This document shows, one piece after another, positions 3,432 through 8,174 of a DNA stretch of 16,776 nucleotides. This stretch comes from a virus. The DNA is taken from the UHGV virus genome UHGV-1844214; one strand, given 5' to 3'. The number at the start of each line of letters is the position of its first letter. Within the stretch, counting starts at the first letter, position 1. The notes under the pieces are model-generated. The model was given only the letters and a program-made list of their open reading frames with translations, had not been told where the DNA came from and searched no databases. The position numbers and the translations under genes are program-made.

Positions 3432-3594
3432 CGTCTTCTTCCTCGTACATTGAGCTATTCGGATCGCTCATCAGTTCTGCGCAGCAGTGCTCACACACGT
3501 GAACTTCCAGCACATGCAGCTTCTGGCCGCAGTTAGCGCACGTTAAAGCCCGCTCGACGCTTCCTTGTTCGTAACTTCGATTTTGGTCAATCAC
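3424..3594 (-). CDS. ninF: NinF (56 aa, GTG start)
   Basis: Hand translation of the minus strand from GTG at 3594: (V/M)[55 protein letters not shown]. Below the ORF-track size cutoff. GTGA overlap with ninE stop, ATGGCTAA overlap with ninG start. Confidence 0.7.
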
Positions 3595-3773
3595 CTTGTT
3601 TTCCTCGCACGTTCTCTAAGCCACCGGATATCCCACAGGTGAGCCGTGTAGTTGAAGGTTTTTACGTCAGATTCTTTTGGGATTGGCTTGCGTTTATTTC
3701 TGGAGCGTTTCGTTGGAAGGTATTTGCAGTTTTCACAGATTATGTCGGTGATGCTTCGTCGCTGTCGTCTCAT
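3591..3773 (-). CDS. ninE: NinE (60 aa)
   Basis: Internal Met of the 90-aa ORF-track entry: [52 protein letters not shown]..., lambda NinE-like; ATGA overlap with the upstream methyltransferase stop. Confidence 0.8.
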
Positions 3774-4297
3774 GCCGCCCTCCTGACGCCCTGCCCGATC
3801 GCCATCAATGCCGCTTTGGATACGGTAGTAAACATCCGTCGAGGACTGATGAACGGTCGCCAAATCAGCAGCATGGAGCCTTTGCTGTTTCCCTTCTTCT
3901 CCAGCCCTGTCGATGGTTCGATAAAATTAATCCGTCCATCAGTGATAATACGAACTTCGTCAACACTCTCCAGAGCCTTGCTGAACCATCCGACAGACAT
4001 ATCCTCTGGCACAAGCATCACTACCGTCTGTCGTTGTTGTATGCACTGCTCAGCGGCTTTTTCCACCCACGGCCTGATATTGCTGTACGGTGGGTTATTC
4101 CAGATTGCACCGTGGCTTATCCACTCAGAATTTAGCGCGTCGTCGGCCTCAGTTAGCCAGTGAGCGCACAGAGCATTTTTGTCGCTCGCTGCCGAATCCA
4201 GCCAGAATCCAAACTCAATATCCAGTGCATCAAAAAGCCAAAGCGGCGTTTGCCAGCAGTCCTTGTCGTGTGCTGGCGTATTTGATTTGATAGTCAT
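3770..4297 (-). CDS. Phage Dam-like DNA N6-adenine methyltransferase (about 175 aa)
   Basis: Motif IV NPPY (..[15 protein letters not shown]..) plus upstream FGFWLD segment; sits where lambda has ninC/ninD. Start taken at ATG 4297 (ATGA overlap with the ninB stop, AAGGGAAGG upstream); an alternative ATG at 4324 lies inside ninB. Confidence 0.75.
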
Positions 4298-4740
4298 GCA
4301 GCCTTCCCTTTTCGTTGTGACCATTCATACTCTCGCCGGGAGTCATCACTCCACCGCACGTTGCGCTCTGAGCCGAACCAGAACATGATTTCGATAAGCT
4401 CAGTCATGCTGGCCTTTCGCATTTTGCTGGTACGCACTCCAAGCATAACAACGCCACCGTCGATACCAGGCGCACTTCGTTGCTCCAGTTTTTTGGTCTT
4501 AAGCCACAGAGCAGTGAACAGATCTTTCCAGTCCTCCGGCGCAAGTCTCTGTCCATGCCAAAGCACCTGACGCGAAACATCGTTCAGCATCGGCCACATA
4601 CGGTCATTCTGCGCTTTGCTCCGCTTGGGTTCTTTAATGTGGACTTCGTGAGGTGACTTGTCGTCGATGGGAAGTGAGAGTATTGCGTCTATGGCGTTGT
4701 TTCTGATTGCTTCGTTGCGAAGCATGTATATTTGCTTCAT
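4294..4740 (-). CDS. ninB: NinB-like protein (148 aa), divergent allele
   Basis: ORF-track protein shares the lambda NinB pattern (..DVSRQV.WHG..L..E.WK..FTA..K.......G..VV.G..TS.M.......L.E.....G.ER.V.WSD..R...EW...). Similar but not identical to lambda as recalled. Confidence 0.75.
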   Translation of the reverse strand: MKQIYMLRNEAIRNNAIDAILSLPIDDKSPHEVHIKEPKRSKAQNDRMWPMLNDVSRQVLWHGQRLAPEDWKDLFTALWLKTKKLEQRSAPGIDGGVVMLGVRTSKMRKASMTELIEIMFWFGSERNVRWSDDSRREYEWSQRKGKAA

Positions 4741-4762
4741 CGTTACCTCGACTTAATTCTGC

Positions 4763-5089
4763 TCATTGATACCCTCTCTCACTTAATCGCCTCCACGCTT
4801 CGTTAAACTCCTCTCTGGTTGCGCCGGATTTTCTTTCTTCAAACATCATGCATTCGCTGATGTCTCCCCATGACTTTGGTCGCTTTTCAGCGAACAGATC
4901 ATCCCATTCGAATACCCAGCGGCCTGATTTTCGGTAGTGGTAAATGGTCAGCCATGTTGTGCTGTTCGCTGGATACCCATAGAGAACTTCGACTTTTTGA
5001 TCACGGTCTTTATGCTTTTTCAGCAGGATAAAGCCAGCAACCAGTGAAGCTCCGGCAAGAATGATGATTGGAATTTGCCAGTCAGCCAC
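4763..5089 (-). CDS. Hypothetical membrane-anchored protein (108 aa, one N-terminal TM segment; GTG start)
   Basis: ORF track; hydrophobic N-terminus IPIIILAGASLVAGFILL then a charged soluble domain; GGAGGG 4 nt upstream of the GTG start. Occupies the lambda ren position. Confidence 0.5.
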   Translation of the reverse strand: MADWQIPIIILAGASLVAGFILLKKHKDRDQKVEVLYGYPANSTTWLTIYHYRKSGRWVFEWDDLFAEKRPKSWGDISECMMFEERKSGATREEFNEAWRRLSERGYQ

Positions 5090-5101: not shown

Positions 5102-5308
5102 TTAACTCACAAAACTCCACGCCATTTTTGCTACGACAACAGGCATAACACCGATAATCACCCACAGGAGAATGCTACCGAAAAGCACACCCACCATGTC
5201 TTTACCTTCGCCTACCAACCGGACAAAACTGCTGGCAACCACAATGAACGTCGCCACCATCCACATAGCACCGAGAATCCTCAATGCAGAGAAAATTAAC
5301 TCAACCAC
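5102..5308 (-). CDS. Hypothetical small membrane protein (68 aa, two predicted TM segments; GTG start)
   Basis: ORF track; two hydrophobic stretches (MWMVATFIVVASSFV and VLFGSILLWVIIGVMPVVV); GGAGAG 6 nt upstream of GTG; stop 12 nt before the next gene. Confidence 0.45.
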   Translation of the reverse strand: MVELIFSALRILGAMWMVATFIVVASSFVRLVGEGKDMVGVLFGSILLWVIIGVMPVVVAKMAWSFVS

Positions 5309-5322
5309 GATTTACTCTCCCC

Positions 5323-5355
5323 CAAATAAAAAGGCCTGCGATTACCAGCAGGCCT
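5323..5355 (-). terminator. Intrinsic terminator candidate downstream of the helicase gene (tR2-like position)
   Basis: Minus-strand RNA would form AGGCCTGC-(8-nt loop)-GCAGGCCT followed by TTTTATTT. Lambda has tR2 at the equivalent place between the replication genes and the nin region. Confidence 0.45.
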
Positions 5356-5383
5356 GCTATCAGCTCAGTGATGTAGATGGTCA

Positions 5384-6820
5384 TCAGAATCCTCCTTTCT
5401 TCTTGGACTGCGGTTCCTCGCGTTCACGGCGGCGCATTTCAGCAGACTGTTGGTCTGTGTCATAAATAGCGCCATTTGCCTGAATGCAATACACCGTGCC
5501 GGTATTGCCATGACGATTGAGACGAAGGATTAGTTCAGTTTCACCAGGTGGAACACTGTCATCAAAAGCGCCTTCACGATGGATCCCCACCCAATAATCG
5601 CAATCCTGTTCAATCTGCCCTGTATCTCGTGAGTCACTTGGTAATGGGCGTTTATTGGTTCGGCTTTCCAGTGCGCGGTTAAGCTGCGTCAGAAGCACAA
5701 CAACGCAATCAAGCTCTTTGGCAAGGTTCTTCAGTCCTTTGGTGATCATGCCGTAGGCAAGGTCGTTGCGATCGGCCTTCTCAGCGGTCATTAGTGTCAG
5801 GTAATCGACCAGAATCATGCCAACACATCCTTTTTCTCGCTTGATTCGACGGCTTTCGCTGACGATTTGAGCCAGAGATAATCCCGGCGTGTCGTCGATG
5901 TAAAGCAGGTCGATTTCACTCAAGCGATTGGCTGTTTCGATCGCCCTGTTGAAGTCACCATCGTAATCACCCTGATAGCCGTCATCAGCGTCATTTGTCG
6001 CCGGAAGGTAAAAAATATTCGGGTTAACACCTGACTTCTGTCCTACCAGTTTTTCCAGTATCTGGTCACCGGGCATTTCAAGGCTGAACATCAGAGCAGG
6101 CTTTTTCTCATGCACTGCGCAGTTGATTGCCATCTGGCTGTATAGTGTCGTTTTCCCCATCTTAGGGCGAGCGCCAATGACAAACAGAGAGCCTTTCACC
6201 AGACCTTTCGGTGACAGCATCCTGTCCAGCGATGGGATCCCTGTGCTCATTCCTCGCTGTTCGCCTGACGGGTCAAATCGCTTCTCAAGGTCGCTAACCC
6301 AGTCTTCCATGACCTCACCAAATGAGCGAAGGCCGCGACGCGATCCGGTTTTTGCATGGTCTGTCAGTTGCGTGAAAATCGCCTGAATAGCTTCGTACTT
6401 CTGCGTTGCAGTCATTCCGTTGCGGGAATAGAGCAATTCCGTCGCTTCAGTCATGCGGTTGATGGCGTAGCGTTCCATTGCGGTTTCACGAACCTGCATT
6501 GCATAGGCAACGATGTTTGCGGCGCTTGGCGTGTTCTTTGCGATCTCAGCGATATAAGCAAAACCGCCAACAGACGCCGTTAACGATTTACGCTCCAGTT
6601 CATCGAAAAGCGTCAGGCCATCTACTGGCTTTTGCTCCCGGTGCATTCTGGTTATTTCTTCGAAAAGGATTTTGTGTGGTCGGCTGTAAAATGAATCAGG
6701 CTTCAGCATCGCCAGAACTTTCTGGACGCGCTCACTGCTGTCATCATCCAGAAGCAATCCACCAATCACCGCCTGCTCTGCCTCGATGCTATGGGGCGGC
6801 GCATAAAAATTATCGGTCAT
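5384..6820 (-). CDS. Replicative DNA helicase, DnaB family (about 478 aa)
   Basis: Walker A GARPKMGKTT, DnaB-type N-terminal domain (HSIEAEQAVIGGLLLD), Walker B-like LILVDYL; replaces lambda P. Start taken at ATG 6820 (GAGGGTG upstream), overlapping the O-like stop by 11 nt; the ORF-track start at 6835 is a GTG. Confidence 0.85.
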   Translation of the reverse strand: MTDNFYAPPHSIEAEQAVIGGLLLDDDSSERVQKVLAMLKPDSFYSRPHKILFEEITRMHREQKPVDGLTLFDELERKSLTASVGGFAYIAEIAKNTPSAANIVAYAMQVRETAMERYAINRMTEATELLYSRNGMTATQKYEAIQAIFTQLTDHAKTGSRRGLRSFGEVMEDWVSDLEKRFDPSGEQRGMSTGIPSLDRMLSPKGLVKGSLFVIGARPKMGKTTLYSQMAINCAVHEKKPALMFSLEMPGDQILEKLVGQKSGVNPNIFYLPATNDADDGYQGDYDGDFNRAIETANRLSEIDLLYIDDTPGLSLAQIVSESRRIKREKGCVGMILVDYLTLMTAEKADRNDLAYGMITKGLKNLAKELDCVVVLLTQLNRALESRTNKRPLPSDSRDTGQIEQDCDYWVGIHREGAFDDSVPPGETELILRLNRHGNTGTVYCIQANGAIYDTDQQSAEMRRREREEPQSKKKGGF

Positions 6821-7709
6821 CGTGTTCACCCTCACGAACTTTCAGGTAGGTATTGTCGTTAAGCAGGAAATCAAATCCCTTTTTGTGCCAGACAGTTCCG
6901 CGTTGATGGTTTGGACGCTCTTCGAACATCCATCGGCAATTTTCGCCTACGTAGCTCAAATAATTTCTCCAGTCCTGCATCGTGAACCCATGCCCGTCAA
7001 GCTGGCGGGTTATCACTCCGGCTTTGCGCCAGAACGTTCGGATCTGGTTTTTACGCTTGTCATTCAGTGCGCGGATTCTTGGCGCTTCAGGAAGGATTTC
7101 GTGGTAAGCATCGACAACATCCTGACAGCTGACGGAAGGTTTTTTCTTGTCAGACTTTTTGTCTGCTGTGGCACTCTCTAATACGTCAGTATTAGAGATA
7201 ATATTATTATATTCTTTATCTGTGGTAATTTGCTGGTAATCTGCTGGTACAGCATTGCTTACAGGCATTGGTATTGCTGGCTTTGAGGTGGTAATTTGCT
7301 GGTAATCTGCTGGTACAAAATTTGACTGATAATCGTCATATTTCTCTACCGAGAAAACTGAGAATTTACCGTGTGAAACCCAGTCAATCATGCCGAGTTT
7401 TTTGAACTTTCTAAGCAGGTACTGAACGCGATCTGGTTTGAGTCCTGTTTCAAACGCCAGAGAGTTTCTACCGCCAAGTAGCTTCCCTCTGCCTACCAGA
7501 ATTTCTCCTGCGTCAGTCATTACATACTCAGGCGTATGCTTTGCTTTGAGGATTAAGTGAACCCACAGATGCGCAGCTTCTGCGTCCTTGTAAAACGGCA
7601 CATCCATAATTTTACGGTGCAGCAAGGCATACCCCTTACCGCTGCTTTGATGCGGTTGTTGTAGCCTTCTGGCCTCTCTGGCTTCGGCTAGATTAGATAT
7701 GTTACTCAT
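6810..7709 (-). CDS. Replication initiator, O-like (299 aa), with iterons inside the coding sequence
   Basis: Sits directly upstream of the helicase in the lambda O position; coding sequence contains direct repeats (peptide [10 protein letters not shown] encoded twice) and an adjacent AT-rich tract; conserved phage replisome-organiser-like C-terminus. Confidence 0.8.
7175..7317. repeat. Putative origin of replication: iteron array plus flanking AT-rich tract inside the O-like gene
   Basis: The 30-bp unit GTGGTAATTTGCTGGTAATCTGCTGGTACA occurs identically at 7222-7251 and 7288-7317, with degenerate TGCTGG copies between; each unit contains repeated TGCTGGTA sub-motifs. AT-rich stretch at 7175-7220. 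Confidence 0.6.
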
Positions 7710-7848
7710 GACCTTTCTCCTTCTGCATCAGCTTCACCTTTTCCAACTCAGCCCGGAATCGACCAGGCTGCTTGAAGCTGGACAGGAAGCGATCACGTAG
7801 TATGTGTTTGTGAATTTTGTCCTGGTAAGGACTGAGTTGTTTTGTCAT
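7702..7848 (-). CDS. Hypothetical small basic protein (48 aa), stop overlapping the O-like start
   Basis: Hand translation from ATG 7848 (AGGAG 5 nt upstream): [48 protein letters not shown]; stop TAA overlaps the O-like ATG (ATGAGTAA). Not in the ORF track (under 60 aa). Confidence 0.4.
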
Positions 7849-7859
7849 AATGACTCCTG

Positions 7860-7936
7860 TGGATTGATCCAGTAATGACCTCAGAACTCCATCTGGATTT
7901 GATCAGAACGCTCGGTTGCCGCCGGGCGTTTTTTAT
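7860..7936 (+). ncRNA. oop: oop antisense RNA (about 77 nt) overlapping the 3' end of cII
   Basis: Plus strand ...GATCCAGTAATGACCTCAGAACTCCATCTGGATTTGATCAGAACGCTCGGTTGCCGCCGGGCGTTTTTTATT matches lambda oop as recalled, including the terminator hairpin and U-tract; convergent with cII. Confidence 0.7.
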
Positions 7937-8174
7937 TGGTGAGAATCGAAGCAACTTGTCGTGCCAATCGAGCCATATCGTCGTCAACGACGCCCCATTC
8001 AAGAACAGCAAGCAGCATTGAGAACTTTGGAATCCAGTCCCTCTTCCACCTGCTGATCTGCGACTTATCAACTCCCACAGCTTCCGCTGTCTTCTCAGTT
8101 CCAAGCATTGCGATTTTGTTAAGCAACGCACTCTCGATTCGTAGAGCCTCGTTGCGTTTGTTTGCACGAACCAT
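7881..8174 (-). CDS. cII: Transcriptional activator CII (97 aa)
   Basis: Internal start [75 protein letters not shown]... is essentially lambda CII as recalled; start context AAGGAAATACTTACATATG matches lambda. Confidence 0.9.

Follow-up and report, generated by a model that had tools for sequence, protein, structure and literature searches.

Among the adenine methyltransferases (MTases) carried by phages, the closest described relative of the gene considered here, namely the MTase gene that lies between ninB and ninE in UHGV virus genome UHGV-1844214 (16,776 nucleotides, referred to as a whole as the window), is M.EcoVT2Dam. This orphan enzyme of prophage VT2-Sa targets 5'-GATC-3' (PMC6602927, citing Radlinska and Bujnicki 2001), and the paper on its cloning is cited among those on phage Dam enzymes, beside P1, the T-even phages and HP1 (PMC7556043). 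A more distant relative is M.Phi93DAM of Lactococcus phage Phi93, for which SMRT (single-molecule real-time) sequencing revealed G6mATC on native phage DNA, and for which both phage DNA and plasmid DNA from expressing cells were resistant to DpnII and sensitive to DpnI (PMC4190342). The enzymes of phages T1 and HP1 are also described in the literature as phage Dam methyltransferases. T1 Dam, according to literature of the 1980s, was reportedly purified as a GATC enzyme.

The window encodes a protein of the first of these types. An earlier note on this DNA had read an N6-adenine methyltransferase with an NPPY motif into the open reading frame (ORF) at 3770-4297. That ORF is real, and the profile search that the note proposed as a check returned full-length matches to two curated models. 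The first is Pfam PF05869, "DNA N-6-adenine-methyltransferase (Dam)", with E 8.3e-65 and a score of 218 bits (cutoff 28.1); the match spans positions 1-167 of a profile of 169. The second is TIGR01712, an NCBIfam equivalog entitled "phage N-6-adenine-methyltransferase", with a score of 264.2 bits (cutoff 97.05) over positions 1-165 of 165. The protein also matches phrog_111, "DNA methyltransferase", and fits the orphan-methyltransferase models of PADLOC. It is identical to orf32 of VT2-Sakai (NP_050531) at 174 of 175 residues (99.4%), the sole change being the conservative substitution I60V, and it is 100% identical to the protein of phage Nil2. Given its identity, intactness, motifs, context and distribution, and with a GATC specificity taken from the literature, the gene is very probably best explained as an intact orphan GATC MTase of lambdoid phages, of the M.EcoVT2Dam type. 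The coding sequence and its conserved segments are as follows.

3770-4297, minus strand: coding sequence of the orphan phage N6-adenine DNA methyltransferase, 175 residues, M.EcoVT2Dam type, PF05869 / TIGR01712; assigned from the ORF list, the sequence, the profiles and near-identical phage proteins.
4244-4261, minus strand: N-terminal family signature D13-x-W15-x-T17-P18, its four residues invariant in the window, VT2, HP1 and Phi93 proteins.
4184-4207, minus strand: F31-W-L33-D34-S-A-A-S38, putative S-adenosylmethionine (AdoMet)-binding acidic loop, motif I-like, ahead of motif IV; F31, L33 and D34 invariant.
4085-4096, minus strand: catalytic motif IV, N68-P69-P70-Y71 (AAC CCA CCG TAC), invariant in 30 homologues and in the HP1, Phi93 and VT2 proteins.

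Read from the sequence, the gene runs over 175 codons from an ATG at 4297-4295 to a TGA at 3772-3770. An alternative in-frame ATG upstream, at 4324, would give a protein of 184 residues, i.e., nine more; the shorter form is preferred, since related phages have it as the annotated product and the profiles align from residues 2-4 onwards (TIGR01712 from residue 2). On the opposite strand, a 174-codon ORF at 3639-4163 (plus strand) runs antisense to the MTase gene and is most likely its non-coding shadow. In an alignment of the window, VT2, HP1 and Phi93 proteins, the invariant residues are D13, W15, T17, P18, F22, F29, F31, L33, D34, N41, T49, L55, W59, N68-P-P-Y71, V93-M-L95, E114, I118, R122 and F125. 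The earlier note had named lost catalytic motifs, as judged by careful alignment, as an outcome that would speak against its reading. No such loss is seen: all family-invariant residues are present, no motif is lost, and the gene carries neither a truncation nor a frameshift. That is, it is an intact and ordinary copy, with nothing unusual about it relative to known copies.

Which gene of VT2-Sakai encodes M.EcoVT2Dam bears directly on the specificity of the window protein. Bases 1-30000 of VT2-Sakai contain no methyltransferase gene apart from orf32. The one large candidate without annotation, orf4, was considered as a further MTase with a possible claim to the name M.EcoVT2Dam, and was rejected, its product being a DUF551 protein. 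M.EcoVT2Dam is moreover entered separately from the enzyme M.EcoGV, which is of the MT-A70 type (PMC6602927). These two facts, namely a sole MTase gene in the bases covered and a separate entry, lead us to equate M.EcoVT2Dam with orf32. Considering its near-identity to this protein, the window MTase very likely catalyzes the AdoMet-dependent N6-methylation of the adenine in GATC.

A different substrate has to be considered, i.e., adenines methylated non-specifically, or RNA. The Shiga toxin (Stx) prophages offer a precedent. M.EcoGV / M.EcoPA8orf6770P is, like copies of the window gene, carried by Stx prophages and annotated as a GATC "Dam homologue", and it proved to be an MTase of 16S rRNA, with an MT-A70 domain, a DPPW motif, a METTL3/14-like structure and a partner, PNB-2 (PMC10810198). 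We rejected an equation of the window MTase with this enzyme, which is of the MT-A70/DPPW type and encoded in the early-left region (PMC10810198), whereas the window protein has NPPY and no MT-A70 match. The non-specific adenine MTases Hia5 and Hin1523 of Mu-like prophages are Dam/DpnM-like, with DPPY and a well-conserved FxGxG motif I (PMC3299994). This assignment was likewise rejected: the window protein has NPPY, and there is no FxGxG in its sequence. The enzymes with other substrates thus belong to other families (MT-A70 with DPPW, or a Dam-related group with DPPY and FxGxG), and the window protein matches PF05869 only. In addition, the PF05869 enzymes of VT-2 and Phi93 are documented as GATC-specific, the latter by SMRT sequencing on native phage DNA, and those of T1 and HP1 are described as Dam methyltransferases. 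We therefore regard a substrate other than GATC in DNA as highly improbable.

The term "Dam-like", as applied to this protein in the earlier note, holds for its reported specificity, by near-identity to M.EcoVT2Dam, but not for its ancestry. E. coli Dam, T4 Dam and DpnM are enzymes of the alpha class (PF02086, MethyltransfD12), and they resemble the window enzyme in reported product (G6mATC), in cofactor and in the Rossmann MTase fold. The window protein, however, lacks the marks of the alpha class: it does not fit the MethyltransfD12 profile (a Pfam profile search with this protein gave no match to PF02086), it has no DPPY motif, and no target-recognition domain is inserted between motifs III and IV. 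It is a small single-domain protein with no separate target-recognition domain, in which the acidic L-D loop precedes NPPY. A sequence search of the PDB returned no relative (best E-values 0.18 and 0.72, both spurious), and thus no solved structure for any member of the PF05869-type family; the structural comparison was for this reason based on an AlphaFold2 model. In this model, which is of moderate confidence and poorly defined at residues 33-51, the fold is closer to gamma-type enzymes than to E. coli Dam, with E. coli Dam, DpnM and T4 Dam scoring lower (5.8, 5.6 and 5.1, respectively). The segment F31-S38 is only putatively the cofactor site, as the predicted local distance difference test score is <50 for residues 33-42. 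Its mere 175 residues, together with the missing PF02086 match, give it the look of a minimal gamma-like catalytic core of Rossmann type that has NPPY and lacks a recognition domain. At family level it is unrelated to E. coli Dam, and "Dam-like" speaks only of what the enzyme is reported to methylate.

Within PF05869, the better-studied members differ from the window protein in size and setting. T1 ST20 (PF05869 E 1.7e-70) and HP1 orf13 (E 7e-75) share with it the full-length family domain, NPPY, D-x-W-x-T-P and L-D, but their identity to it is only 33% and 36%, respectively. T1 Dam (237 residues) is extended by 45 residues at its N terminus and contains an insertion, and its gene belongs to a virulent siphovirus; the HP1 gene stands at the end of a P2-like early operon. 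M.Phi93DAM (30% identity, E 6e-34) is, like the window protein, a small PF05869 orphan in which NPPY is the only recognisable classical motif. In contrast to the window protein, it has 140 residues, the C-terminal ~35 being absent, and its gene lies between terminase genes in a virulent phage of a Gram-positive host (936-type). M.EcoMIV, a "Dam homolog" of an ST131 prophage, is left aside in this comparison.

Copies of the window gene are widespread. DNA at least 95% identical to it is present in 244 phage records, among them phage 434, mEp213, HK140, Sf101 and many Stx-converting phages, and nearly all of the phage records listed carry annotations of the NinB / methyltransferase / NinE type. 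At the same threshold, 1566 of 5426 complete E. coli genomes (~29%) contain the gene, in up to five copies per genome, annotated as "phage N-6-adenine-methyltransferase". In a large protein collection, the clusters of near-identical MTases have thousands of members, and homologues at 60-86% identity occur across the Enterobacterales (Pectobacterium, Serratia, Yersinia, Providencia, Photorhabdus and Edwardsiella). By tblastn, a relative is encoded in 2130 of 50,697 phage records. The gene is thus already known, with curated Pfam and NCBIfam models, wide annotation, and a REBASE-style name for a variant that differs at one residue.

The genomic setting is also that of the M.EcoVT2Dam group. The genes and signals that immediately flank the MTase gene are the following.

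4294-4740, minus strand: ninB, encoding the Orf recombination mediator (Pfam NinB, E 2.8e-48).
4302-4308, minus strand: Shine-Dalgarno-like GGGAAGG, 4 nucleotides before the MTase ATG, within the 3' end of ninB.
3779-3784, minus strand: Shine-Dalgarno sequence of ninE, AGGAGG, within the MTase gene.
3591-3773, minus strand: ninE (Pfam NinE, E 3.2e-43).

In lambda, the order at this position is NinB-NinC-NinD-NinE; in the window it is NinB-MTase-NinE, so that the MTase gene fills the ninC/ninD slot, as the earlier note had said. The ATGA overlaps it described can be read directly: the ninB stop codon (4296-4294) shares ATGA with the MTase start (4297-4295), and the MTase stop (3772-3770) shares ATGA with the start of ninE (3773-3771). 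From these overlaps, translational coupling along ninB-MTase-ninE is a reasonable inference. A full-text search of the literature for phage, dam methyltransferase and ninB together found nothing. The same arrangement, with identical overlaps, is found for M.EcoVT2Dam (VT2-Sakai orf32) and for the copies in Stx phages, 434, mEp213, HK140, Sf101, Nil2 and Phi24B (where the gene is called 'dam'), whose DNA is 96-99% identical to that of the window, with no differences of substance. Downstream of ninE, Pfam identifies NinF, NinG, NinH, a calcineurin-like phosphatase and Q, and no gene for a cognate restriction endonuclease adjoins the MTase gene among these flanking genes (NinB and NinE, then NinF, NinG and NinH).

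Comparison of DNA blocks locates the joints of this mosaic. Positions 3766 to 1301 of the window, which begin at base 7 of ninE and extend past Q, are 98% identical to lambda 42097-44562. Positions 4741 to 3586, i.e., ninB, dam and ninE, are 96% identical to VT2-Sakai, and the ninB of the window has no DNA match to that of lambda. Thus, the lambda-like sequence is joined on where dam gives way to ninE, and ninB travels with dam. Beyond ninE the window prophage follows lambda (ninF-ninG-ninH-phosphatase-Q), whereas VT2-Sakai has an ant/roi insertion. The mosaic boundaries are sharp at 3766 and 4741, and upstream of 4741 only a 71-bp block containing tR2 (5315-5385) is common to both lambda and VT2-Sakai. 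In a search of the whole window against phages and E. coli genomes, no single one covers >66% of it; the prophage is a mosaic.

Transcription into the nin genes would have to pass a terminator.

5332-5355, minus strand: intrinsic terminator upstream of the nin genes, at the position of lambda tR2, with an 8-pair stem (6 GC pairs) followed by TTTTATTT.

This element (5355 to 5332) lies inside the 71-bp block, which matches lambda 40566-40636, in the tR2-bearing spacer between ren and ninB, at 96% identity. By analogy with lambda, N antitermination would be needed to pass it, and the MTase gene would be a delayed-early gene, transcribed from pR after N antitermination. The 528-bp dam of Phi24B could be detected in cultures of lysogens, and induction with norfloxacin brought a significant change in its expression, which is consistent with expression in the lytic cycle.

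Elsewhere in the window, two minus-strand ORFs occupy the place of lambda ren, between the gene for a DnaB-like helicase and ninB: one at 4763-5089 (108 residues, phrog_5903) and one at 5102-5308 (68 residues, hydrophobic, phrog_1165). Both belong to conserved phage families, with no Pfam or PADLOC match. The replication module (5384-6835 and 6810-7709, minus strand) consists of an O-like initiator and a DnaB-like helicase, as in VT2-Sakai and Sf6, and differs from the helicase-loader type of lambda P. In the pL operon (12249-13626, plus strand), RecT and a Sipho_Gp157 family protein take the place of lambda exo/bet/gam, surrounded by several conserved ORFs of unknown function (phrog_3486, phrog_4658, phrog_8967). 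Directly 3' of the N antiterminator gene, the ORF at 9893-10576 (plus strand) encodes a protein of family PF18757, Nmad5 (Pfam E 2e-70; phrog_1965), with no PADLOC match. By its name, "nucleotide modification associated domain 5", this is the second gene of the prophage with a nominal link to the modification of nucleic acids.

As regards function, we propose that the MTase is made when N antitermination has set in, during the lytic cycle or following induction, and that its production probably involves translational coupling within ninB-dam-ninE. Its most likely action would be to add an N6-methyl group to the GATC adenine of both strands. Lambda, which is without this gene, is methylated at 46% of its GATC sites on wild-type E. 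coli and at 77% when host Dam is over-produced. With only 46% methylated, host Dam is thus a limiting factor when a lambdoid genome replicates, and a phage enzyme would close the gap. The likely effect, then, would be to lift GATC methylation of the fast-replicating phage DNA above the level set by host Dam. The benefits may include resistance to nucleases that cut unmethylated GATC, i.e., restriction enzymes of the MboI/DpnII type and MutH, and possibly regulatory effects.

Which of these benefits matters most is where the alternatives part. An anti-restriction role, which the earlier note had put forward with due caution, is plausible by analogy, because the Lactococcus homologue blocks DpnII, and the Phi93 data are the best direct evidence for such an effect in the PF05869 family. 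The hosts of Phi93, however, have DpnII-type systems and no Dam, so that the benefit of protection is obvious for that phage, and not obvious in Dam+ E. coli. Alternatively, the same GATC MTase might serve mainly to shield fast-replicating phage DNA from host MutH rather than from restriction. The undermethylation of lambda DNA speaks for this, as unmethylated DNA is open to MutH on both strands. Hosts that are dam- mutH+ also give lower phage yields, and enterobacteriophages show counter-selection of GATC (Deschavanne and Radman 1991, cited in PMC5014478). The window conforms to this pattern: it has 38 GATC sites, where base composition predicts 65, a first-order model 75 and a second-order model 88 (a ratio of 0.43-0.58). 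However, raising lambda methylation from 46% to 77% left the mutant frequency unchanged, and the depletion of GATC persists with the gene present. On balance, we consider protection from MutH as the main benefit to be possible but rather unlikely. CTAG, too, is strongly depleted in the window, with 3 sites against 16.

Another alternative is that the MTase acts as an epigenetic regulator of the phage, controlling the decision between lysis and lysogeny, prophage stability, origin use or packaging through GATC sites in control regions. Stable lysogeny of the Stx phage 933W reportedly requires host Dam, and the authors of the Phi24B study suggested that the phage Dam might supplement it (PMC3342100). 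Efficient packaging of P1 requires GATC methylation (as summarised in PMC4190342), and in the window four GATC sites cluster around cII, at 7791-8055. The position of the gene argues against such a role, as it lies in the lytic delayed-early operon, behind a terminator, and induction significantly alters the expression of its Phi24B counterpart, in contrast to that of lom, which is expressed in the lysogen. Furthermore, many lambdoid phages have ninC/ninD in its place. The nin region is dispensable in lambda; together with this presence of ninC/ninD in many phages, it follows that no essential circuit depends on the MTase gene. A primarily regulatory function is thus improbable in our judgement.

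The joint travel of ninB and dam also raises the idea that the two form a functional module, in which fast methylation of GATC on both strands would erase the hemimethylated signal read by MutH and so locally silence host mismatch repair. Over-production of Dam is known to impair mismatch repair. If such a module existed, the block on recombination between diverged sequences would be lifted, and NinB/Orf and NinG/Rap would be aided in shuffling mosaic lambdoid genomes. A hint in this direction may be seen in the DNA, where ninB and dam stand in one 96%-identical block with the mosaic joints outside both. We regard the module as very unlikely.

Several considerations weigh against our interpretation of the gene as an M.EcoVT2Dam-type GATC MTase that raises the methylation of phage DNA. 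The assignment of M.EcoVT2Dam to the nin-region orf32 was made by elimination, which covered the first 30 kb of VT2-Sakai and not bases 30001-60942. The GATC specificity predicted for the window protein relies on secondary citations and on homologues; the enzyme would have to read GATC with 175 residues and no recognition domain, and the structural model is of only moderate confidence. The host already has Dam, and the selective benefit of a second enzyme is therefore only a presumed one; the role of phage Dam enzymes, as a review-type statement puts it, is not well understood. Lastly, the depletion of GATC persists despite the MTase gene, which evidently has not removed whatever selection works against this sequence.

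The practical value of the analysis lies in annotation. For this gene, the appropriate name is phage N-6-adenine-methyltransferase (predicted specificity, GATC), which keeps it apart both from E. coli Dam and from the MT-A70-type "Dam homologue" of Stx phages, an rRNA methyltransferase. It is a routine component of lambdoid prophages that can be annotated correctly, and it matters little for the window as such.
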